IMG/VR virus record: IMGVR_UViG_2529292883_000007
Coordinates: 1-10,506 of that record
Strand: one strand, 5' to 3'
Length of the DNA stretch: 10,506 nt
Source of the DNA: a virus
Taxonomy: Duplodnaviria; Heunggongvirae; Uroviricota; Caudoviricetes
The position numbers and the translations under genes are program-made. Of this stretch, positions 1 through 10,506 are shown one piece after another (the first letter of the stretch is position 1; each line of letters begins with the position of its first letter). The notes beneath the pieces were generated by a model. That model was not told the DNA's origin. It did no database searches and saw only the letters and a list, made by a program, of their open reading frames with translations.

Positions 1-411
1 TCAAAAAAAGTTTCCCTGATAAAACCCCAGTACACGCTGCACAACTTCGCTCTTCCGGCACTCGCTACAAATTATGTTCAATCTCCTGTCGTAGCGACGT
101 ATTTCTCCGTCAGGTAATGACCAGATAAGGTCCGGATCAACCACAGATGGTTTCTTCACCTTTGCCCTCGAGAGTTTTTTGCGGGCATTTTGCCAGTCCT
201 TACGAGCCTGTTCTGACGGGAATAACCCGTAGCCAGAGTTGTATACATCGCCACTGGCAACCAGCTCTCTGGCCAGAACGCTCATCAGATATCTTGTTGC
301 CCCGGTTTTAGCTTCCTGTTGTCGTAACGTCTCGCGCCCACTCTGGCATACGAGTTCAACAACCTGCCCTTTAATTTTTTCTCGCTCTTCTTGTGTAAAT
401 ACTTTTGCCAT
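1..411 (-). CDS. Hypothetical phage protein, 136 aa, last gene of the leftward early operon
   Basis: Complete ORF on the minus strand (ATG at 411-409, stop TGA at 3-1), 40 nt downstream of the replication gene and co-oriented. No family recognised from the sequence. Confidence 0.45.
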   Translation of the reverse strand: MAKVFTQEEREKIKGQVVELVCQSGRETLRQQEAKTGATRYLMSVLARELVASGDVYNSGYGLFPSEQARKDWQNARKKLSRAKVKKPSVVDPDLIWSLPDGEIRRYDRRLNIICSECRKSEVVQRVLGFYQGNFF

Positions 412-451
412 AAGTCCTCCTGAAAATTACCTCATGACCTGAAATAAACAC

Positions 452-1417
452 TCACCCCCTGAATCCCGGTGGAATTTCGGTATCCGGTTCAGAAACATGA
501 TTCACACAACGCTGCGTCGGACCACGTCCCAGACGAATCACCAGTTCATCCCATTTTTCGCGAAGCTTTGACGGACTCATGATGTTTTTTACCCAGAATG
601 GATCCCGCTGTACCCGACCAAACATTTCGCAAATTTGCCTGTGCGTTCTTCCATCCAGCATCCGCATTGTGCGCACGTCATTGGCCCACGCGGTCCAGTT
701 GGGTTCTTTCGGTCGCGCGATCTCGCCATCATCGCTGGCAGCCTGTTCGTAAAGGCTCACGATTCGTCCCCAGATCCACTGCGCACACACCAAATCTTCC
801 TGGCTGCCCCACTGGCGTTTTTTTGCACTGAACACAACCGCGTCAGGATGTCGGGTTAAAAAATCCTGTTCAGCCGTCTGCGGGTCCGGTTGCGAAGCTT
901 CCGGACGAGAAGTGTTTTTATTCTCTGTAGTAATCTCTGTTGTATTCTCTGTAAGATCATCGGGCCATTTTGACCCGATGACATTGGGTCGTCTTGAACC
1001 AATGGAGCGTGTCATTTTGGCCTCTTCCATCGTGTCATTTTGACCTGATGGAGCGGCGCATTTTGACCTGATGGATTCGCTCAATTTGCCACCATCTAAA
1101 AGCTCGCTCTCGTAATTAATCGTGTAAAAATTAGTCATGTCACGCTTTGATTTATTGAGTTTTTCGCAACGCAAAAGCCCCAGCGTTTTCAGACTTGCAA
1201 ATGCGCGTTTTAACGTTGATTCAGACCAGAACGGAAACTGTTCCAGCCATTGTTCCGTTGTGTTATAAATCCAGCGAACCCCGTCACATTCCATACCGGA
1301 ACCGGTATCTCTCAACCAGTAATGCAGCTGCTGCAACACGATGGCTTCGTTCAGACCAATTTTCATCGCCAGCTGCGTGTTTATAACCAGCGGGCGTTCA
1401 GCAAAAAGGAGCTTCAT
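452..1417 (-). CDS. Putative replication initiation protein (lambda O-like organisation)
   Basis: 321-aa ORF whose ATG (1417-1415) is preceded by a GGGGGAGGGG Shine-Dalgarno. The N-terminal part has a winged-helix-like pattern; the middle of the gene carries iteron-like direct repeats followed by an AT-rich stretch, as in lambda O/ori. It sits after Cro-like and YdaT-like genes as in lambdoid pR operons. Family assignment is from memory only. Confidence 0.6.
   Translation of the reverse strand: MKLLFAERPLVINTQLAMKIGLNEAIVLQQLHYWLRDTGSGMECDGVRWIYNTTEQWLEQFPFWSESTLKRAFASLKTLGLLRCEKLNKSKRDMTNFYTINYESELLDGGKLSESIRSKCAAPSGQNDTMEEAKMTRSIGSRRPNVIGSKWPDDLTENTTEITTENKNTSRPEASQPDPQTAEQDFLTRHPDAVVFSAKKRQWGSQEDLVCAQWIWGRIVSLYEQAASDDGEIARPKEPNWTAWANDVRTMRMLDGRTHRQICEMFGRVQRDPFWVKNIMSPSKLREKWDELVIRLGRGPTQRCVNHVSEPDTEIPPGFRG
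966..1075. repeat. Iteron-like direct repeats (putative origin of replication inside the O-like gene)
   Basis: Two perfect copies of CATTTTGACCTGATGGA at 1036-1052 and 1059-1075, near-copies at 966-982 and 1013-1029, and a degenerate copy around 982-1007, all with about 23-bp spacing. An AT-rich tract lies at 905-958 on the downstream side in the coding orientation; it also holds three 12-13-bp repeats (ATTCTCTGTA-type). Confidence 0.5.
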
Positions 1418-1438
1418 CCCCTCCCCCAGAACACGTTA

Positions 1439-1864
1439 TCAATGCACCACCACGGCATTTCCCGCCGGACCACCACGATTCATCTGATTGAAACCAGCAA
1501 TCACCACCGCGACAAGTTCATCAGCGTCTCGCACCAGTCGTTCATGCGCCTCCACCAGTTCCCGAAAATAAGCGGAACTGTGGCTGCGCATCCTGGCCAC
1601 CAGCGGAGGTGGCATTGCCTTTTCGATCGCTGGTAACAACGCCTGAATTTTTTTCACCGCATCAGGAGTATCTTTCTCCACCCAGCGGAAAATTTTCTGA
1701 GTATTGCGAGCTAGGGCTTCTGGGTGTGAATCGTCGTACAGTTCCGGAAACGTCATACCCAGCTCAAAATAAGCCTGGGTTATTTCAGCCGCCGGAACTT
1801 TTTCACCGTCCGGATACGCCCAGGCATTCATCGCCATGCGGATGTGTTCATGCTTGATTTTCAT
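1439..1864 (-). CDS. ydaT: YdaT-family protein (Rac prophage YdaT-like, CII-like position)
   Basis: 141-aa ORF starting MKIKHEHI..., which I recall as the YdaT N-terminus. Its ATG (1864-1862) overlaps the stop of the upstream Cro-like gene in an ATGA arrangement, implying translational coupling. Confidence 0.6.
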   Translation of the reverse strand: MKIKHEHIRMAMNAWAYPDGEKVPAAEITQAYFELGMTFPELYDDSHPEALARNTQKIFRWVEKDTPDAVKKIQALLPAIEKAMPPPLVARMRSHSSAYFRELVEAHERLVRDADELVAVVIAGFNQMNRGGPAGNAVVVH

Positions 1865-2121
1865 GAATCAACTCCCGCCACTTGCTGTGTGTTAGCCTGA
1901 AACTCAGCAGGCAAGCCGTCGGTTGGGTTGGGATAAATATCAGGGCGAATTTCATGCGGGGTAACTTCCCAGCTCATTAGCTGACATAACGGAATTACCT
2001 GCTTTGGGGGAACGCCAAAGCTAAACCATTGCCAAACAGTCTGTTGAGCGACCCCCATATAACGACCTATTTCAGCTTGAGAGAATTTCTGCCTAATTTT
2101 TTCGCGAGTGCTATCTATCAT
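1861..2121 (-). CDS. Cro/YdaS-like helix-turn-helix regulator
   Basis: 86-aa ORF with an HTH-like segment (SQAEIGRYMGVAQQTVWQW) and a GGAGG Shine-Dalgarno upstream of the ATG at 2121-2119. It is divergent from the repressor gene and first in the leftward operon. Confidence 0.65.
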   Translation of the reverse strand: MIDSTREKIRQKFSQAEIGRYMGVAQQTVWQWFSFGVPPKQVIPLCQLMSWEVTPHEIRPDIYPNPTDGLPAEFQANTQQVAGVDS

Positions 2122-2155
2122 TTTGCCCTCCTCTAAAAACTATAGGCAAAAGACT

Positions 2156-2194
2156 ACAATAAAAAACTGTGCACGATCAACAGTTTTTTATTGT
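2156..2194. promoter_or_regulatory. Operator O1: perfect inverted repeat with 15-bp arms and a 9-bp spacer, in the divergent promoter region
   Basis: ACAATAAAAAACTGT (2156-2170), spacer gcacgatca, ACAGTTTTTTATTGT (2180-2194); the arms are exact reverse complements. On the minus strand a TTGATC -35-like hexamer overlaps the palindrome and faces the Cro-like gene. Confidence 0.55.
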
Positions 2195-2230
2195 GATGCT
2201 TTTAACAGTATTTCCCTGTAAAATTGAACG

Positions 2231-2632
2231 ATGATGAACGCCTTAGAAGTATCTATGTACAGAATCAGCAAGCTTCTCCAAGAAACAGGATGGAGCCAGG
2301 CTGAGCTTGCTCGTAGAATTGGTGTGACACAACAAACTGTTCAACAATGGGTCAGCGGTAAAGCTACACCTAAAGCCTCAAGTTTGGATAAACTGGTTGA
2401 GGTTACAGGGCATCCATTGCATTGGTTTTTATTGCCTCCTGAAGAGGGTGAGCAAATCTTCACCCCTGATACGATGAAAATTGGTCCTCGCCAACGCGAA
2501 CTGCTCCAGGCTTTTAGTGCGTTTCCAGAAGAAGACCAAGAAAAAATGCTTCAGGAAATCAAAGACAAGAAAAAATCAATGGAAGAAACCATTGCTCGAT
2601 GGTTGGCGGCGCAAAAAATCCGCCGAGCGTGA
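2231..2632 (+). CDS. XRE-family HTH repressor (PaaR-like / DicA-analogous prophage repressor)
   Basis: 133-aa ORF with an N-terminal XRE HTH (SQAELARRIGVTQQTVQQWVSG). It is divergent from the Cro-like gene and lies directly upstream of the antitoxin and ParE genes, matching the paaR-paaA-parE three-gene layout as I remember it. Confidence 0.7.
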   Translation: MMNALEVSMYRISKLLQETGWSQAELARRIGVTQQTVQQWVSGKATPKASSLDKLVEVTGHPLHWFLLPPEEGEQIFTPDTMKIGPRQRELLQAFSAFPEEDQEKMLQEIKDKKKSMEETIARWLAAQKIRRA

Positions 2633-2657
2633 CCAGTGAACAAAGAGGAGTCATGTC

Positions 2658-2849
2658 ATGAGTACAGCCCTTTCTCCGATAGTTTCAGAATTCGAAACTA
2701 CCGAACAAGAAAACAGTTACAACGAATGGTTGCGCGCTAAAGTCGCGTCAAGCTTTGCAGATCATCGCCCCGCAATACCGCATGACGAGGTGATGGCTGA
2801 AATGGAAAATCTTATTGCTCAAATTGCTGCGACTAGCGGGAGTGTGTAA
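2658..2849 (+). CDS. PaaA-type small antitoxin (ParE-associated)
   Basis: 63-aa ORF with a GAGGAG Shine-Dalgarno 7 nt upstream. Its stop codon overlaps the start of the ParE reading frame (TAATG at 2847-2851). The sequence (SPIVSEFETTEQENSYNEWLRAKVA...) resembles PaaA-type antitoxins from memory. Confidence 0.6.
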   Translation: MSTALSPIVSEFETTEQENSYNEWLRAKVASSFADHRPAIPHDEVMAEMENLIAQIAATSGSV

Positions 2850-3138
2850 TGCTACCCATTTTATGGCTACCATCTGCTCGCGATGATTTGCGTCAGATCG
2901 TAGCCTATATTGCCAAGGAAAATGTTCCACAGCAGCTCGTAGACTAAAAATACGTATTGAAACGTCTGTTTTAGCCCTCTCAGAGCATCCATATCTATAT
3001 CCGCCAAGTGATAGAGTATCCGGTTTGCGGGAAATTGTAGCTCACCCTAATTATATCGTTTTGTACCGAGTAGCAGCTTCAAGCATTGAAATTGTAAATA
3101 TTGTGCATACCCGCAGACAGTTTCCCTTCCCTGCCTGA
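2849..3138 (+). pseudogene. parE: ParE-family toxin gene disrupted by a frameshift
   Basis: The frame from ATG 2849 encodes a ParE-like N-terminus (MLPILWLPSARDDLRQIVAYIAKENVP...) and stops at TAA 2945-2947. A different frame, open from 2887 to the TGA at 3136-3138, encodes a ParE-like C-terminus (...AARRLKIRIETSVLALSEHPYLYPPSDRVSGLREIVAHPNYIVLYRVAASSIEIVNIVHTRRQFP). The switch point is near 2927-2935. Confidence 0.6.
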
Positions 3139-3156
3139 ACCGAACGATTTTCACAC

Positions 3157-3180
3157 TCCCTCATACGAGGGATTTTTTTT
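3157..3180 (+). terminator. Intrinsic terminator after the repressor-TA operon
   Basis: Stem TCCCTC (3157-3162) / GAGGGA (3167-3172) with loop ATAC, followed by 8 T (3173-3180). Confidence 0.6.
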
Positions 3181-3191
3181 GCCAAAAAACA

Positions 3192-3235
3192 ACAATTAAA
3201 AACTGTTGACACCAAACAGTTTTTAATTGTAGATT
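3192..3235 (+). promoter_or_regulatory. Operator O2 overlapping a rightward early promoter (pL analogue)
   Basis: ACAATTAAAAACTGT (3192-3206), spacer tgacaccaa, ACAGTTTTTAATTGT (3216-3230); perfect 15-bp arms, one base different from O1. A consensus -35 TTGACA (3204-3209) straddles the left arm and spacer; a -10 candidate TAGATT lies at 3230-3235 but the spacing is long, so the exact -10 is uncertain. Confidence 0.55.
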
Positions 3236-3414
3236 GTTTTCACCAGCCCACCCCGTCCCACAGAATGCAGGGCAAAACTTCGAGTTACCAGGCAGTGGTC
3301 AGGGGTTAAGTAGCCAGCCCGAGGCGTATGAACATGACGGCAGGGATCAAATTTAATAACTATGCAGCAGGTTTTTGTTCCGCTACCCCGGCGTTAAGGG
3401 GAAATGAGGTCAAC

Positions 3415-3570
3415 ATGGAAACTATCGATCTTGGCAACAACGAATCTCTGGTGTGCGGTGTGTTTCCCAACCAGGACGGAACGTTCACCGCGATGACGTA
3501 TACAAAAAGCAAAACGTTTAAAACCGAATCTGGCGCGCGTCGTTGGTTGGTAAGACATTCAGGTGAATAA
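3415..3570 (+). CDS. ydfA: YdfA-like small protein (first gene of a dicB-operon-like transcript)
   Basis: 51-aa ORF (METIDLGNNESLV...) with a GAGGT Shine-Dalgarno 5 nt upstream. Its position downstream of the repressor-controlled promoter and upstream of DicF matches the Qin ydfA-ydfB-...-dicF order. An in-frame upstream start at 3328 or 3334 would give a 78-80-aa product and cannot be excluded. Confidence 0.5.
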   Translation: METIDLGNNESLVCGVFPNQDGTFTAMTYTKSKTFKTESGARRWLVRHSGE

Positions 3571-3571
3571 A

Positions 3572-3718
3572 ATGAACGAAACAGAATTAAAACACGTTAT
3601 CGCTCTGCTTCTGGAGGATGCAAAACGCCTCCAGCAACTGGAACCAAATGCAGGCACTGAAGCCCGCATCTGGCTGGCATTGTACGCTATTGAGTCAGGT
3701 CGTGATGATGAAGGTTAA
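3572..3718 (+). CDS. ydfB: YdfB-like small protein
   Basis: 48-aa ORF (MNETELKHVIALLLEDAKRLQQLEPNAGTEARIWLALYAIESGRDDEG), absent from the ORF track because it is under 60 aa. AGGTGA Shine-Dalgarno 5 nt upstream; the ATG is 1 nt after the ydfA-like stop. Confidence 0.45.
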   Translation: MNETELKHVIALLLEDAKRLQQLEPNAGTEARIWLALYAIESGRDDEG

Positions 3719-3999
3719 GCATCATCTAAGTTTTTTACATAGCGCCCATTAGATTCGGTAACAAGAACTCCGGGATTTTTCTTAACTTTTGAGGCCACTG
3801 ATTCAGCAAGGTTAGCAACAGATTCTTTGTCTTCATTCTTGCTTGAATATGTATATTCGGCATTAGGAAGTCGGTAGGTGTTCCCTGAAGAGGTTGTAAT
3901 CGTTCTGGAGAATCCCTTTGCTTCCATTCGTTCATGAAGCTTATCGTAATCAGCGGAACTGGAATCGCGAAGTTCGATCCTGACTGTAAATTTTGCCAT
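3715..3999 (-). CDS. Hypothetical 94-aa protein, convergent to the early operon
   Basis: ATG at 3999-3997 preceded by a strong GGAGGATAAA Shine-Dalgarno (the longer track ORF starts inside this SD, so the 94-aa form is preferred). Its stop overlaps the ydfB-like stop by 4 bp (TTAA at 3715-3718). Non-repetitive, protein-like composition; family not recognised. Confidence 0.6.
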   Translation of the reverse strand: MAKFTVRIELRDSSSADYDKLHERMEAKGFSRTITTSSGNTYRLPNAEYTYSSKNEDKESVANLAESVASKVKKNPGVLVTESNGRYVKNLDDA

Positions 4000-4335
4000 T
4001 TTATCCTCCATTAAGGGCTGAATTAAAAATGGAGACCAACACGCTGCTACGTGTGGTCGTGCGCCGGACACGGATAAGAATCCGGCACTGACAGTTTACT
4101 GAAAGGATATTTCCCTGAAAAGTCAGGGCATAACACGAAAGCGTACGGCGAAGGCCTTCACCTATGAGGTTTGTCGTTAAATTTCTTCGACCGTGCGCTT
4201 CCGGTTGTGGCACTCCGCGAAATGGCGCGGTGGTAAGTATGGCGGGGTTATTCCTTCCCCCGTTGAGGACACCGGGTTGTCAGGTTGACCATACACTTAA
4301 GTGACAACCCCGCTGCAACGCCCTCTGTTATCAAT

Positions 4336-4393
4336 TTTCTGGTGACGTTTGGCGGTATCAGTTTTACTCCGTGACTGCTCTGCCGCCCTTTTT
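4336..4393 (+). ncRNA. dicF: DicF small RNA (ftsZ-targeting prophage sRNA) with its 3' terminator hairpin
   Basis: TTTCTGGTGACGTTTGGCGGTATCAGTTTTACTCCGTGACTGCTCTGCCGCCC followed by TTTTT matches my recollection of the DicF sequence. It ends in a GGCGG...CCGCC hairpin plus a U-run, and lies downstream of ydfA/ydfB-like genes as in Qin. Confidence 0.7.
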
Positions 4394-4801
4394 AAAGTGA
4401 ATTTTGTGATGTGGTGAATGCGGCTAAGCGCACGCGGAACAGTTAAAAAAAATATTGTTATGGGTGGATTCTCTGTATCCGGCGTTAATTGTTAACTGGT
4501 TAACGTCACCTGGAGGCACCAGGCACCACATCAACAAAGTTTATTTAATTATGCGCGAATTAACCGTTATTCGTGCAGGGGATTTCTACACCTGAAATCC
4601 ACAGTTCTTTAATAATATGGATCGGGCTGTCACGTAAACCACAATTCGGGGTGCCGCCGAATGCCCTGATATATCCGCGGAACCGGAACACAGGGTCGGG
4701 ATGTGATTTTTTGAGCAAACCAAACTGGTGGCTTCCGACACTTGCGAGAAGTCCAAATTTAGACTAAATTATGACTAAATTTAACGACAAGGCCGTACTT
4801 C

Positions 4802-5035
4802 ATGAAAATAGAAACTATCAGCTACATCAAGAAAAACGCAGCCTCACTGGACCTGGCTGAACCAATTCTTGTCACGCAGAATGGTGTTCCTGCATACGTA
4901 ATTGAATCCTATGAGCAGCAACAGGAACGCGAGAATGCTATTGCGTTACTGAAACTTCTCACTATTTCAGAAAGTGACAGGTCTGAAGGCCGCGTGTTTT
5001 CAAAAGAACAGTTGCTGGATAGCTTTAACAAGTAA
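4802..5035 (+). CDS. Phd/YefM-family antitoxin
   Basis: 77-aa ORF (MKIETISYIKKNAASLDLAEPILVTQNGVPAYVIESYEQQQERENAIALLKLL...) with the Phd/YefM pattern. The toxin ORF follows 8 nt after its stop. Confidence 0.7.
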   Translation: MKIETISYIKKNAASLDLAEPILVTQNGVPAYVIESYEQQQERENAIALLKLLTISESDRSEGRVFSKEQLLDSFNK

Positions 5036-5043
5036 GGTTGACG

Positions 5044-5364
5044 ATGCAGATTGAATACACGCTTACCGCCAGAACAAGCCTTGAGCAAATTGCCGACCAT
5101 CTCCGGAGTAACGACATTGACCCACTCCCTGTAATAGAAGAAATTCTTGAACGATTTGAAACAAGAGTTACGGCATTCCCGTCCGGATGCCAGTTATGCC
5201 CGGAGTTGCTCAAACTTGGCGTGGCGAAATATAGAGAATGCAACACACCAGAAGGTTACAGAGTGCTGTACTCTGTAGAAGGGGATGTTATCACTGCACA
5301 CGCGGTTCTTTCCCAACGTCAGGATATTAAACAGTTACTGTTCAGGCGACTGATTAGAGCTTAG
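5044..5364 (+). CDS. RelE/ParE-superfamily toxin (putative)
   Basis: 106-aa ORF from ATG 5044 (the track begins at an in-frame TTG at 5038), with AAGG 6 nt upstream. ParE/RelE-like pattern (conserved N-terminal helix, and YRVLYSVEGDVITAHAVL near the C-terminus). Lies directly downstream of the Phd/YefM antitoxin. Confidence 0.55.
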   Translation: MQIEYTLTARTSLEQIADHLRSNDIDPLPVIEEILERFETRVTAFPSGCQLCPELLKLGVAKYRECNTPEGYRVLYSVEGDVITAHAVLSQRQDIKQLLFRRLIRA

Positions 5365-5382
5365 CAATCACAAATTCAGTAC

Positions 5383-5411
5383 CCCCTGTTCCCCCAAGTT
5401 CAGGGGTTTTT
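5383..5411 (+). terminator. Intrinsic terminator after the TA pair
   Basis: Stem CCCCTG (5383-5388) / CAGGGG (5401-5406) with a 12-nt loop, followed by TTTTTGCTTTT. Confidence 0.5.
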
Positions 5412-5426
5412 GCTTTTCTGAGGGTG

Positions 5427-5455
5427 TTGACGCTGGGAACTGTCAGGGGTATATT
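5427..5455 (+). promoter_or_regulatory. Near-consensus sigma70-type promoter upstream of rha
   Basis: -35 TTGACG (5427-5432), 17-nt spacer, -10 TATATT (5450-5455); predicted transcription start around 5462. Confidence 0.5.
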
Positions 5456-5510
5456 TTGTCCGCACCTCATAAAACGGGTGCCGGGCGTGGAAACCCGATG
5501 TTCACTAACG

Positions 5511-5543
5511 CGCATAACCGCGCTCAGGCGGTTTTTTTATGCG
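5511..5543 (+). terminator. Terminator/attenuator hairpin within the rha leader
   Basis: Inner stem CCGC (5518-5521) / GCGG (5528-5531) with loop GCTCAG, followed by 7 T (5532-5538). An outer stem CGCATAA (5511-5517) / TTATGCG (5537-5543) could alternatively sequester part of the U-run. It sits about 55-80 nt downstream of the predicted start. Confidence 0.45.
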
Positions 5544-5707
5544 TAATGCACAGCCACATTCAGATTATGGTGGGACGTGCAGGGCAGCCGCAAGGCTGGC
5601 CGGGTTCGTTAGTGACCGGTATTTCCACCCCTGTACGTCTCACCACCCTTATGGTCGTGGAAAACCTTGGTGGTGAGTTAATCAAATTCACTAACGAGGC
5701 TGCTATC

Positions 5708-6262
5708 ATGGCTACTATCCCTACCCTTTCTCACCCTGACGTAACCATCAAAAATGGTCGCGCTGTCACTACGTCTGTTGCGGTTGCAGAGTTCTTCCGC
5801 AAAATGCACAAGGACGTTTTGCGCAAAATTGAAACGCTAGAATGCTCTGAAGATTTTAACGAGCGCAATTTTACGCCCGTTACCTACACCGACGCCAAAG
5901 GCGAAAAACGACCAATGTACCAAATCACCAAAAACGGCTTCGTTTTCCTGGTGATGGGGTTCACCGGCAAAAAAGCCGCAGCTTTCAAGGAAGCCTACAT
6001 CGCTGAATTCGATCGCATGGAGGCAGAGTTGTACCAGCTTAATACCACTACCACAGACAAAATAATTCCTGGTGATGGTCGCACTCTCGTTGTTCACTTC
6101 GACGAACGCGGCAATATCAAATTCACCGAAACCGTTCCTGACGGCGCTCTCGTCTGTACTCTGGATACTTTCCGCTTTTATCTGGAGAAGCAGGGGTGGA
6201 CTCTTGTAAACAGGAGCGCAATTAAAAATATGACCGTCGAGCAGTTGCTGAGTATTAAATAG
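5708..6262 (+). CDS. rha: Rha-family phage regulatory protein
   Basis: 184-aa ORF from ATG 5708 with a GAGG Shine-Dalgarno 8 nt upstream. The N-terminus (KNGRAVTTSVAVAEFFRKMHKDVLRKIETL...YQITKNGFVFLVMGFTGKKAAAFKEAYIAEFDRME) matches the Rha domain pattern. The track's longer 268-aa ORF starts at a TTG inside the promoter -10 and is not preferred. Confidence 0.7.
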   Translation: MATIPTLSHPDVTIKNGRAVTTSVAVAEFFRKMHKDVLRKIETLECSEDFNERNFTPVTYTDAKGEKRPMYQITKNGFVFLVMGFTGKKAAAFKEAYIAEFDRMEAELYQLNTTTTDKIIPGDGRTLVVHFDERGNIKFTETVPDGALVCTLDTFRFYLEKQGWTLVNRSAIKNMTVEQLLSIK

Positions 6263-6308
6263 TTTTCTGGAATTTTCTTAATGCGACAAATTTATTAAGG
6301 AGATAATT

Positions 6309-6530
6309 ATGATTGCTCATCACTTCGGAACTGATGATATTCCTCGTCAGTGCGTGACTCCCGGTGATTATGTTATTCATAAAGGAAGAACATATATTGC
6401 TTCGGTAAACAATATTAAAAAACACCGGCTCTATATTCGTGATTTTTCCACACAACACTGTATTAATGAAACCATGATTAAAGTCTTCCTTGATCGTGAT
6501 GGTTTACCTGTAAAGGCGGAGTCGTGGTGA
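6309..6530 (+). CDS. Small protein, possibly KilR-like (Rac cell-division inhibitor family)
   Basis: 73-aa ORF with a strong AAGGAG Shine-Dalgarno 6 nt upstream, in a locally AT-rich segment. The KilR assignment rests on its length, its position next to the recE-like gene and a tentative recollection of the KilR sequence. Confidence 0.5.
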
Positions 6531-6647
6531 GCTGTAATAAAATAACTACCCCAATACGACATTCAGTTTAATAAATACATCAGATTCGATTCTTATATGC
6601 CAGCAATGGCAGTGATTTGTTCACCCCTAAATCTGTAATGAGGTTTA

Positions 6648-9086
6648 TTGATGAGCACGAATAAAGAACTGTTTGCGCTATATTGCGAAGCTAAAAATGA
6701 CAAGGTCAGAAAGCGTCTCGGTATTAAAGGTGGCTTTTTCTGGATCGAAGCCAAAAAACTTTCCGTTGCAGTTTCCCGCTGTATTGCCGCTATGGACGAT
6801 GCTGGCTACGACGAAGATGATTTCAAAAAAACAGTTCGCGTCCATTTGCCTGTTGTAAATGACCTGCCACCTGAAGGCGTATTTGATACTGATTTCTGTA
6901 ACCGTTACGAAAAAGGTGGAGAAGATGGCATCACAATGATGCCGGTACCGTCCAGCAACAGCGATGAAAACAGTAACGCCGCTAATACTAACGTCAACGG
7001 CGAAGACATGACTGAGATTGAGGAGAATATGCTTCTGCCGGTTTCAGGTCAGCTTCTGCCTGTTAGATGGCTGGCACAGCACGGCAGCGAAAAACCTGTC
7101 ACGCATGTTTCACGGGATGAACTGCGGGCATTACATAACGCACAGGAAGAAAAACTTCCCGCCGTTACCGCTCTGGCCATCTCAAATAAAGCAGTGCAAC
7201 TCGAACCGCTGGAGATTCGGGATTTGTACAAACTGGTGCGGGACACTGACAAAGTTTTTCCCGCCCCCGTAAATTCAGACCTGGGACTGATGACTTCCTT
7301 CATCGAAGCATACCTGGACGCTGACTACACCAATCGCGGTCTGCTTACAAAAGAGTGGATGAAAGGAAATCATGTTTCGCGAATCAGCCGCACACCATCC
7401 GGCGCTAACGCTGGCGGCGGTATTCTTACCGATCGCGGCGAAGGTTTTGTACACGATGATGCATCACTGGCGCGCGACGTAGCCACTGGCGTGCTGGCCC
7501 GTTCAATGGACGTGGACATTTATAACCTTCATCCGGCACACGCTAAACGCGTCGAGGAAATTATCGCTGAAAATAAACCGCCCTTTTCTGTTTTCTTCAG
7601 CAAATTCATCACCATGCCGGGCCACAAGGATTTCTCCCGTGCCATCGTGGTTGCCTCCGTGAAAGAAGCACCAGTTGGTATAGAGGCTATGCCCCACCGT
7701 GTCACCGAATACCTGAATAAGGTGCTGACTGAAACCGATCATGCCAACCCTGATCCGGAAATCGTGGATATTGCCTGCGGTCGCTCCTCTGCCCCGATGC
7801 CGCAGCGTGTAACGGAAAAAGAAAAACATGATGAAGAAAAACCGCAACCATCTGGCGCAATGGCAGATGAACAGGCAACGGCTGAAACAGTGGAACCGGA
7901 TGCAACTGAACATCATCCGGACACGCAGCCGGTGGATGCTCAGCCACAGGTGAATTCTGTTGATGCGAAATATCAGAAACTGCGGGCAGAACTCCATGAA
8001 GCCAGGAAAAACATTTCGCCTAAAAATCCTGTCGACGCAAACAAATTACTGGCCGCCTCTCGCGGAGAATTTGTTGAAGGGATTAGTGACCCGAATGATC
8101 CGAAATGGGTTAAGGGGCACCAGACTCGCGAGTCTTCGAACCAGAATCAACCAGAAGTGGAACAAACCAGGTCAGAATCGGGACAAAATAGCCAGGATGC
8201 ACACCAAAATGAACCAAAAACGATACATCCGGAGCCAGCAGCGCAACATGCACAGAAAAATCCCTGTAATGTTTGTGGGGAAACTGGCGGGGGCACATGC
8301 CCTGACTGTGCCTCAGTAATGGGTGACGCAACTTACCATGAGACATTCTGCGAGGAAGATTCAGATGAATCTCAGGAAAAAGCTCCGGAGGAGATGGAAA
8401 ACCCTGAACATCCGCATCCGGAAAATACTGACAGCAATCAGCATAACAATAGCGGTGATAAAACTGACAGGACGACAAATTCCTTAATTAATATGTACGG
8501 TTATAAGAAAAGAACATCCACCAGCAGAATGTGTCACCATCTGATGATCGACCTTGAAACAATGGGAAAAAATCCTGATTCCCCGATTATCTCAATAGGT
8601 GCAATATTTTTCGATCCGCAAACCGGAGAGATGGGACCAGAATTTAATAAAACCATCGATCTGGAAACTGCTGGCGGAGTCATTGATCGGGACGCGATCA
8701 AGTGGTGGCTGAAGCAATCACGCGAAGCGCAATCTGCCATTCTGACCGATGAAATCCCGTTAGATGATGCACTGCTGCAATTGCGGGAATTTATCGCCGA
8801 AAACTCCGGTGAATTGTTTGTTCAGGTCTGGGGAAATGGAGCCAACTTCGACAACGTGATTTTGCGCCGTTCATATGAACGGCAGGGTATCCCCTGCCCG
8901 TGGCGCTACTACAACGATCGCGATGTACGCACAATCATTGAACTGGGAAAATCCATAGACTTCGATGCCAGGACGCCTATTCAATTCGAAGGCATACGCC
9001 ACAATGCGCTGGATGATGCCCGTCACCAGGCGAAATACGTTTCAGCAATCTGGCAAAAACTGATCCCGAATCAGTCTGATTTTTAA
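6648..9086 (+). CDS. Large prophage exonuclease: RecE-like N-terminal/central region fused to a C-terminal DEDDh (DnaQ/RNase T-like) 3'-5' exonuclease domain
   Basis: 812-aa ORF with GAGG 8 nt upstream. The C-terminal domain has the three DEDDh motifs: Exo I MIDLETMG, Exo [14 protein letters not shown], Exo [15 protein letters not shown] CxxC-x7-CxxC motif ([15 protein letters not shown]) and an acidic, Pro/Gln/Glu-rich low-complexity segment lie between the N-terminal region and the nuclease domain. It occupies the exo/recE position upstream of xis-int. Confidence 0.75.
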
Positions 9087-9149
9087 TGTTCAACCCCAGT
9101 CGTCGCCCCCAGCTATAGTGGCGGCGACCATGATTAGCGAACGATACTC

Positions 9150-9398
9150 ATGGCAAGACTTATTCTGCTCACTGAGTGGGCAAAAGAGGAATTCAGCGAT
9201 CCGGTCCCTACTCCGGGCACGTTAAGTAAATACGCTAAAGCCGGAATGATATTTCCTCTCCCCAAAAAAGTTGGAAGACACTGGCGAGTGGATCCGCGAG
9301 CTCGCTTTGTCGGAATGGTAAACAAGCCGGAGGTGATCGCCACAGATCATCCTGCTTTAAAGAGGATACTGGAAGATGGCACGCCCGCGAAAATATAA
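9150..9398 (+). CDS. xis: Excisionase (Xis-like)
   Basis: 82-aa ORF immediately upstream of int, with its 3' end overlapping the int start by 23 nt as in lambda xis/int. The sequence (LTEWAKEEF...MIFPLPKKVGRHWRVDP) resembles excisionase-family proteins. Confidence 0.65.
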   Translation: MARLILLTEWAKEEFSDPVPTPGTLSKYAKAGMIFPLPKKVGRHWRVDPRARFVGMVNKPEVIATDHPALKRILEDGTPAKI

Positions 9399-10506
9399 AA
9401 CCGCTGTTCCGGGATTATCTCCGTATTTTGACAAAAGAAATAACAAAGTTTACTGGCGTTACAGGCATCCCATCACAGGTAAAAATCATGGACTCGGCAG
9501 TATTGACCAGAAACTGGCGGAAACCATTGCAGCAGAAGCGAACAGCCGTCTTGCCAGACAACAAATGGAGCAAATGCTCAGTCTGCAGGAGAAAATTATT
9601 AGTGATACCGGCGGCGCATCAACCGTTTCCATTTTTCTGAATAATTACAGAAAAATTCAACAGGAAAGATATGAGAACGGAGAGATCAAACTCAGCACGC
9701 TGAAGCAAAAAGCGGCTCCTCTCAGGGTGTTTGATGAACGTTTTGGAGCCAGGCCGCTAGATGCCATAACCGTAAAAGATGTGGTATCAGTGCTGGAAGA
9801 ATACAAGGCAAAGGGACATAACAGAATGGGACAAATTTTCAGGAAGGTCTTGATCGATGTTTTCCGGGAGGCTCAACAAACGGGTGATGTCCCGCCAGGC
9901 TTTAACCCGGCTGAATCGGCAAAAAAACCGCAAGTGCGGATATCAAGACAGCGACTGACTTTTGATGAGTGGATGATGATTTATAACGCAGCGGAAAAGG
10001 ATGGTTACTTTTTACAGCGCGGCATGCTGCTGGCTCTGATGACGGGCCAGCGTCTTTCGGATATTTGCAAAATGCAGTTTTCGGATATCCGGGATGGTTA
10101 CCTTCATGTCGAACAGCAAAAAACAGGAGCCCGGATAGCCATTCCTCTGGCTCTGCGTTGCGACAAATTAAATCGTACCCTGGGTGACGTGGTGTCATCC
10201 TGTCGTGATTACATCCTTAGTCCGTGGTTATTGCACCATCATCACGCTAAGGGGATGGGTAAGCGCGGCGGGATGGTTAAACCAGCAACGTTAACAGTCG
10301 CATTTAAAAAAGCCCGGGATTCTGTGGATTACAACTGGCGTGCTAATGGCACGCCACCCTCTTTCCATGAGCAAAGATCTTTATCAGAACGATTGTTCAG
10401 AGAACAGGGAATTGATACCAAAATTTTGCTGGGTCATTCGAATCAAAAAATGACCGATATTTACAACGATGCACGCGGTAAGGAGTGGAAAAAACTGGTC
10501 ATTTGA
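9376..10506 (+). CDS. int: Lambda-family tyrosine integrase
   Basis: 376-aa ORF with clear similarity to lambda Int as I recall it: RLTFDEWMMIYNAAEKDGYF / MTGQRLSDICKMQFSDIRDGYLHVEQQKTGARIAIPLAL and the C-terminal PPSFHEQRSLSERLF...LLGHSNQKMTDIYNDARGKEWKKL, including the catalytic R...HxxR...Y arrangement. The stop is at the window edge, so the att site should lie just downstream of the window. Confidence 0.9.
   Translation: MARPRKYKTAVPGLSPYFDKRNNKVYWRYRHPITGKNHGLGSIDQKLAETIAAEANSRLARQQMEQMLSLQEKIISDTGGASTVSIFLNNYRKIQQERYENGEIKLSTLKQKAAPLRVFDERFGARPLDAITVKDVVSVLEEYKAKGHNRMGQIFRKVLIDVFREAQQTGDVPPGFNPAESAKKPQVRISRQRLTFDEWMMIYNAAEKDGYFLQRGMLLALMTGQRLSDICKMQFSDIRDGYLHVEQQKTGARIAIPLALRCDKLNRTLGDVVSSCRDYILSPWLLHHHHAKGMGKRGGMVKPATLTVAFKKARDSVDYNWRANGTPPSFHEQRSLSERLFREQGIDTKILLGHSNQKMTDIYNDARGKEWKKLVI

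Follow-up and report, generated by a model that had tools for sequence, protein, structure and literature searches.

A GhoS-like gene carried tail-to-tail with a YmfJ-type gene in the early operon of a prophage: probable moron cargo of a mobile cassette

The window analyzed here is a stretch of 10,506 nucleotides of viral DNA (Caudoviricetes; positions 1 to 10,506 of the IMG/VR record IMGVR_UViG_2529292883_000007), and our subject is a pair of small convergent genes located between ydfA and the small RNA (sRNA) DicF. On the plus strand, an open reading frame (ORF) of 48 amino acids (aa), referred to as SMALL, runs from an ATG at 3572 to a TAA at 3716-3718, and on the minus strand an ORF of 94 codons, referred to as BIG, runs from an ATG at 3999 to a stop at 3717-3715; both names are used for gene and protein. 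Their stop codons overlap in the four bases TTAA, and a Shine-Dalgarno sequence (GGAGG) lies 5 nt before the ATG of BIG, which is the only credible minus-strand gene in the ORF list from 2231 to the end of the window. An earlier note on this DNA, made from the letters alone, had described this geometry, overlap and Shine-Dalgarno sequence, and all three are borne out. It had also placed BIG where ydfC would be expected, and the alignment to the Qin prophage of Escherichia coli K-12 agrees: similarity is lost from the start codon of ydfB on and returns at ~4058 in the DicF leader, a unit of ~490 bp (~3572-4057) standing in place of ydfB-ydfC. The gene ydfA lies outside this cassette, with its stop codon 1 nt before the start of SMALL (Table 1).

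The promoter-like site found upstream of ydfA is conserved with the O157-type prophage. A palindrome, AAAAACTGTT...AACAGTTTTT (3196-3226), also conserved in that prophage, overlaps its -35 and is probably the operator of a DicA/PaaR2-like repressor. A search of 3200-4600 for canonical intrinsic terminators gave none, in agreement with the earlier note, which saw none between the two genes. The hairpin that can form at their junction is weak and AT-rich (-13.1 kcal/mol, z -1.3, on the plus strand; -12.0 kcal/mol, z -3.3, on the minus strand), and its 7-bp stem was rejected as an intrinsic terminator. A transcript from this promoter to DicF therefore crosses BIG in antisense, as had been claimed.

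Table 1. Features of the window around the convergent gene pair.
Feature	Position	Strand	Remarks
Early-left (dicB-operon type) promoter-like site TTGACA-18-TAGATT	3206-3235	+	10/12 consensus matches; upstream of ydfA
ydfA (DUF1391)	3415-3570	+	Pfam PF07151, E 6e-29; conserved with K-12
SMALL, 48-aa helical-hairpin protein, YmfJ N-terminal family	3572-3718	+	Co-directional with the operon; left half of the cassette
Inverted repeat GATGATG/CATCATC (7 bp) around TTAA	3704-3726	both	T6 run 4 nt later on the plus strand
Overlapping stop codons (TTAA) of both convergent genes	3715-3718	both	Same 4-bp junction in diverged relatives
BIG, 94-aa DUF2622/GhoS-fold protein	3715-3999	-	Sole minus-strand gene of the rightward array
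Cassette-specific upstream segment	4000-4057	-	From alignments; right cassette boundary at ~4057
Shine-Dalgarno GGAGG	4005-4009	-	5 nt upstream of ATG 3999
Degenerate -10 position TGtTGGTCT	4033-4041	-	Place of the relatives' extended -10 TGnTAnnnT
DicF precursor leader	4058-4336	+	Common to K-12 Qin, which is without the cassette
DicF sRNA	4337-4388	+	Rfam RF00039, 76.7 bits

BIG is a genuine gene that codes for a small alpha/beta ferredoxin-like protein of the DUF2622/GhoS-like superfamily (PHROG 8894). The earlier note had found no recognisable family for it, a statement that does not hold: the protein matches PHROG 8894 with an E value of 5.6e-23 (residues 1-87 on profile positions 1-86 of 94), reaches 21.2 bits with the Pfam model PF11080 (GhoS/DUF2622; E 2.8e-4), a marginal match given the gathering cut-off of 21.0, and scores 48.9 bits with the NCBIfam equivalog YmfI_phage (NF051477), under its 140-bit cut-off (161.5 bits for K-12 YmfI itself). 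A comparison of the BIG profile with YmfI of the e14 prophage using hhalign gave a probability of 88% (E 3e-6), which supports BIG being a distant homologue of YmfI. The exhaustive profile search recovered 2263 clusters at E<=1e-3 (family size being counted at 50% identity), coming from many phyla and viral contigs, and the E. coli homologues are named by PGAP either "DUF2622 domain-containing protein" or "type V ... antitoxin GhoS". The family is widespread and known, without a characterised function (PHROG 8894 is annotated without one). No literature was found on DUF2622 and nothing relevant on PF11080/GhoS-like proteins, and for ymfI and ymfJ we found expression lists only.

Structure prediction and profile comparison, both proposed in the earlier note, gave a ferredoxin-like fold with GhoS as best match, besides the homology to YmfI. 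The AlphaFold2 (AF2) model is confident (pLDDT 95.6), and its closest structural match is GhoS (2LLZ). Searches of PDB sequences with the 94-aa protein and with its profile returned chance-level matches only, and the viral structure library BFVD gave nothing at E<=1e-3 for the model. Considering the Pfam match at gathering score, the PGAP product name and the structural match, BIG could be read as a bona fide type V antitoxin, a GhoS that cleaves the mRNA of a GhoT-type membrane toxin. Several results weigh against it, and also against a close sequence link to GhoS within the reading that we prefer. The Pfam score barely clears its threshold, hhalign of the family profile against GhoS gave a probability of only 7%, and GhoS (2LLZ) was absent from the profile search of PDB sequences. 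The invariant His22 of the family falls opposite R28 of GhoS in a low-confidence alignment (hhalign register), R28 being reported as the most important residue of GhoS (PMC4010927). No small hydrophobic ORF resembling ghoT lies downstream of BIG or elsewhere in its vicinity, BIG is a solitary convergent unit and not part of a ghoST-type operon, and its family extends over more than 2000 clusters of many phyla and phages. Since a GhoT-type toxin gene and an operon are missing, and a His stands (with low confidence) in place of the key Arg, we do not regard the protein as a type V antitoxin; a GhoS/GhoT system was rejected for want of a toxin gene and of sequence support, and it is highly improbable here.

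Judging from their divergence, both ORFs are real genes under purifying selection. Against diverged homologues, dN/dS ranges from 0.07 to 0.30 for BIG and from 0.04 to 0.25 for SMALL, in both cases with synonymous sites near saturation. Conservation of the SMALL region at the level of an RNA or DNA element was rejected because nonsynonymous divergence is far below the near-saturated synonymous divergence.

SMALL had been described as ydfB-like. However, it has no similarity to K-12 ydfB and shares with it only the position, and this identity was rejected. Sequence comparison identifies SMALL instead as the conserved N-terminal domain of e14 YmfJ, with 79% identity to the N-terminal 42 aa of that protein. 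The same domain is found in gp10 of the Cronobacter phage phiES15 and gp20 of Aeromonas pAEv1818, as well as in K-12 YmfJ, and the family includes at least 135 clusters in Enterobacterales, with ~42 highly conserved N-terminal residues followed by variable C-terminal tails (36-84 aa in total). The AF2 model of the 48-aa protein is a two-helix hairpin (pLDDT 90.7) with no match in a fold search against the PDB, and neither Pfam nor NCBIfam gave a match for this or other YmfJ-type proteins.

The cassette is mobile. In prophages of Enterobacter asburiae, E. coli, and Klebsiella, the SMALL/BIG pair, with the identical 4-bp stop overlap, is located between the lysis genes and cos/the small terminase subunit, and at both phage positions the small gene runs along the phage operon and the GhoS-fold gene opposite to it. 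The order repressor, YmfJ-type gene, and convergent overlapping GhoS-fold gene is found in phiES15, pAEv1818, and K-12 e14. The GhoS-fold homologue of phiES15 (NC_018454; 3001-3285 of contig L124) is unannotated in GenBank and lies between gp09 (kil) and gp10, overlapping the 3' end of the latter. By tblastn, the small gene adjoins nearly every BIG homologue of at least 54% identity; it was not found beside two Yersinia copies, one of which has a decayed remnant. The latter, from Yersinia massiliensis (L022), has an intact GhoS-fold gene and the remnant just downstream of 4288 (PNAGIESCIW within a 43-aa ORF).

This co-inheritance suggests another possibility, namely that SMALL and BIG are a functional pair, either toxin/antitoxin-like or an effector with its self-immunity, in which the lysogen would produce the GhoS-fold protein and, on induction, the small early protein of the operon would neutralise or replace it. 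The pair is kept with the identical 4-bp junction at two phage positions while BIG falls from 100% to ~54% identity, e14, phiES15, and pAEv1818 keep the pairing even with a BIG that is 37 to 45% identical or undetectable by BLAST, and purifying selection acts on both members. However, the association is not obligatory. Among 78 viral loci anchored on SMALL, a convergent GhoS-fold gene is present in 35; the other 43 are without BIG, and in most of them unrelated convergent small genes overlap or abut the 3' end of SMALL. Relatives of BIG also stand tail-to-tail with an unrelated family (MKFxEL..AFIAxE), many phyla have BIG without such a neighbour, and the Yersinia contig L022 keeps an intact BIG next to the decayed small gene. 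A functional pair is for these reasons unlikely. The data are most simply read as showing a hotspot of convergent cargo at the 3' end of the YmfJ-type gene, where the GhoS-fold gene is the commonest such cargo, and an occasional joint transfer of the pair.

The alternative genes at this site, seen at ~3100-3700 of each of the viral contigs L127-L206, usually overlap the stop codon or the C-terminal tail of SMALL and include 92-105-aa helical proteins ("MDKKQIEALQ..."), a 62-aa zinc-ribbon protein, a 61-aa protein, and others. Distant GhoS-fold genes (41 to 58% identity), for their part, are found tail-to-tail with a small acidic-tailed family (MKFxEL...AFIAxE..D), often with a 4-bp overlap (viral contigs L062-L112, ~4280-4530). 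These partner proteins have no match in Pfam or NCBIfam, and their homology to SMALL was rejected (hhalign probability of 0.1%).

An antisense orientation is a habit of the GhoS-fold family in viruses. Of 60 distinct viral loci suitable for this evaluation, 38 had the nearest ORFs of at least 100 aa on both sides on the opposite strand, and only 3 had both on the same strand. In bacterial genome contigs of other phyla, orientation is mixed and neighbours are heterogeneous, with no common conserved one. Relatives also carry a promoter motif of their own: an extended -10 (TGnTAnnnT) was present 37 to 40 nt before the ATG in 22/22 distinct upstream regions of homologues with at least 54% identity outside the allele group of the window, a sequence motif expected in 1.2% of shuffled sequences, although relatedness among the homologues inflates this count. 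Directly upstream of it, ~45-60 nt before the ATG, there is a conserved box, CCAC(A/T)TCAGGC (for example in contigs L015, L192, and L054), that may be a regulator binding site. One family member, in a metagenome-assembled genome of Akkermansia (L036, 4001-4270), has as same-orientation neighbours a DGQHR-motif (DndB-like) protein and a 392-aa protein that may have a DNA-binding domain (sequences read by eye), a setting that looks like a defence island.

These features suggest that members of the family act as phage morons, in that each stands alone under an extended -10 promoter of its own, is oriented against the phage operon and meets or overlaps the stop of a small gene that runs with the operon. 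The earlier note had suggested that BIG may be a cargo gene, and this stands: it came in with a replacement of ydfB-ydfC, its G+C content is 40.7% versus 47% for the window, its allele was found in 5 of 5426 complete E. coli genomes, and it shares the antisense habit of a family whose members have their own -10 motif. A terminator of its own was not found in 3200-4600, where the weak junction hairpin is the only structure. We conclude that BIG is cargo of an ordinary, moron-like kind, from a family that is known but uncharacterised.

The allele of the window itself appears to have lost the promoter of the family, which counts against its expression as a moron. The -10 motif is found in none of the five window-type alleles, which read TGtTGGTCT (4033-4041, minus strand) at its position, with the A at -11 lost. 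Cassette-specific sequence ends at ~4057, and therefore the -35 region falls in the DicF leader, also present in K-12. A consensus scan detected no convincing minus-strand sigma-70 site between BIG and DicF, and the closest candidates, TTTTCA-17-TAAACT at ~99 nt upstream and a site beyond DicF at 4495-4468 on the minus strand, are weak. Because the -10 motif is absent and the -35 region is DicF leader, expression of this allele in the lysogen is doubtful. In addition, two of the five E. coli carriers of this rare and patchy allele (C8 and PapM-36-2) have a 17-bp frameshifting deletion that cuts the protein to 67 aa.

With its native promoter truncated and mutated, the window copy may therefore be poorly expressed or on its way to decay. 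Taken further, BIG would be a silent passenger that came by recombination in or beside the 48-aa gene, lost its promoter and is now without function. Besides the missing extended -10 and the DicF leader at the place of the -35, the low frequency of the allele, the frameshifted carriers, two truncated copies in viral contigs (L049 and L050) and the frameshift in the neighbouring cargo gene parE2 all agree with such a passenger. However, the 94-aa ORF is intact in the window, E24377A, DS26-1, and "numer 3", with a strong Shine-Dalgarno sequence, intact identical or near-identical copies are found in five viral contigs, and either of the weak candidate promoters might replace the native one. The allele of E24377A is 97% identical to that of the window and shares its context. 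We consider a functionless passenger possible, if doubtful.

The reading that we prefer, to which we assign a probability of roughly 0.6, is that BIG is DUF2622/GhoS-like moron cargo in a mobile tail-to-tail cassette, with an excludon-like regulation and an RNA-directed activity. We infer the last two, as well as any benefit to the lysogen. Since the two units converge without a terminator between them, the GhoS-like gene would be expressed only with the operon repressed, and on induction transcription of the operon would silence it through collision or antisense RNA. Its product is most likely, from the modelled fold, a small RNA-binding or RNA-cleaving protein. In the Klebsiella late-region allele, a minus-strand transcription start site would be expected ~7 nt downstream of TGGTATGCT, with a signal that falls on induction.

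The K-12 counterpart is consistent with this kind of regulation. An RNA-seq-based list of convergent excludons includes ymfI-ymfJ (PMC12288877), ymfJ is strongly induced on e14 derepression, and late in the SOS response its mRNA increases (log2 of 4-4.8) and the YmfJ protein is detected, while ymfI changes little (PMC11002266). The mutual exclusion with the early operon suggested in the earlier note is plausible from the geometry and from the ymfI-ymfJ excludon, and its other half, expression in the lysogen, is doubtful here because the -10 motif is absent. The view of a cargo gene in antisense interplay has support at the level of the family but is doubtful for this promoter-less allele. The same note had proposed a defence or host-benefit role, of which we found no indication: neither BIG nor SMALL nor YdfA matched a defence model of PADLOC-DB 2.0 at E<=1, nor did BFVD provide any indication.

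Regulation in cis could instead be the primary role, with antisense transcription of the cassette dampening leaky read-through into DicF and downstream, and the protein being secondary. DicF derives from a long transcript of the Qin dicB operon, and the convergent geometry without a terminator and the excludon listing of ymfI-ymfJ would suit such a role. However, the strong purifying selection on the protein against saturated synonymous sites, the presence of the cassette beside cos, at a place where neither an sRNA nor a killing gene comes after it, and the lack of the promoter motif in the window allele make it improbable.

More speculatively, SMALL and BIG might be an unrecognised two-gene toggle between lysogeny and lysis, which we consider rather improbable. 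The GhoS-fold protein, made in the lysogen from its own opposite promoter, would bind or cleave specific RNAs. Its targets could be leaky transcripts of prophage killing genes (kil, dicB, or a holin), in which case it would act as a type V-like safeguard, or else the transcripts of a superinfecting phage. Antisense transcription, and perhaps also the helical-hairpin SMALL made from the operon, would turn it off on induction.

Other modules surround the pair. Within 2658-3138 there is an intact gene for a PaaA2-type antitoxin (2658-2849; Pfam PaaA2, E 1.8e-19), adjoined by a ParE2-type toxin gene that is frameshifted by a 2-nt insertion with respect to the O157-type prophage. Inserted 3' of DicF (4802-5364) are genes for a Phd/YefM antitoxin (4802-5035) and for a ParE toxin (5038-5364). 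Further on (5462-6262), isrK (5462-5538) and a C4 antisense RNA (5563-5650) are found at the 5' end of an ORF with Ash/Rha domains, a region between DicF and the exonuclease gene that resembles the P1/P7-like c4-ant or isrK-anrP immunity modules. The ORF list of the window showed no DicB-like entry.

By itself, the locus is of little weight, being a rare and possibly promoter-less allele of an uncharacterised cargo gene. Its analysis corrects two annotations, "GhoS antitoxin" and "ydfB-like/truncated hypothetical", and ties the unstudied ymfI and ymfJ of K-12 to a large family, one of over 2000 clusters at the 50% identity level. The comparative picture, which is of modest value, is that of a family whose members are typically lone antisense genes with a conserved extended -10 and a stop-to-stop junction. 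K-12 e14 or the Klebsiella late-region allele would offer a testable entry into this common class of prophage accessory genes.

Several known systems can be compared with the pair. Scores against Cas2 are common to many ferredoxin-like proteins, and the 94-aa protein has neither sequence similarity to Cas2 nor a CRISPR context. With GhoS (YjdK; a type V antitoxin endoribonuclease, PDB 2LLZ) it shares the Pfam model at threshold, a similar size and the GhoS-like ferredoxin fold, but the identity is 12%, there is no GhoT partner or operon, a His stands opposite R28 (in the low-confidence alignment) and, unlike ghoS, the gene is phage-borne and antisense to its neighbours. The bor gene of lambda is a moron expressed in the lysogen, antisense to the late operon and adjoining the lysis genes, in the interval between lysis and cos, which is also the location of the cassette at its second phage position. 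As with such morons, BIG is a small independent inserted unit in opposite orientation, with lower G+C and a patchy distribution, and its relatives have their own promoter motif; unlike bor-type morons, it is without its own terminator, overlaps the stop of its neighbour and is not a lipoprotein.

Compared with established excludons, the window locus is known from sequence alone and its promoter is doubtful, but it shares with them convergent genes with overlapping ends and no terminator, and transcript evidence comes from the K-12 counterpart (PMC12288877). This counterpart, ymfJ/ymfI of e14, has an overlap of 63 bp, versus 4 bp in the window pair, and YmfJ has a 60-aa C-terminal extension that is lacking in the 48-aa protein. 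YmfI gives no BLASTP alignment with the 94-aa protein, which scores under the NF051477 cut-off, and neither e14 gene has an assigned function. Still, like the window pair, they are convergent and overlapping just downstream of the prophage repressor, with ymfI antisense to the early-left operon, and the kinship extends to both proteins (79% for the YmfJ N terminus; at the profile level for YmfI).

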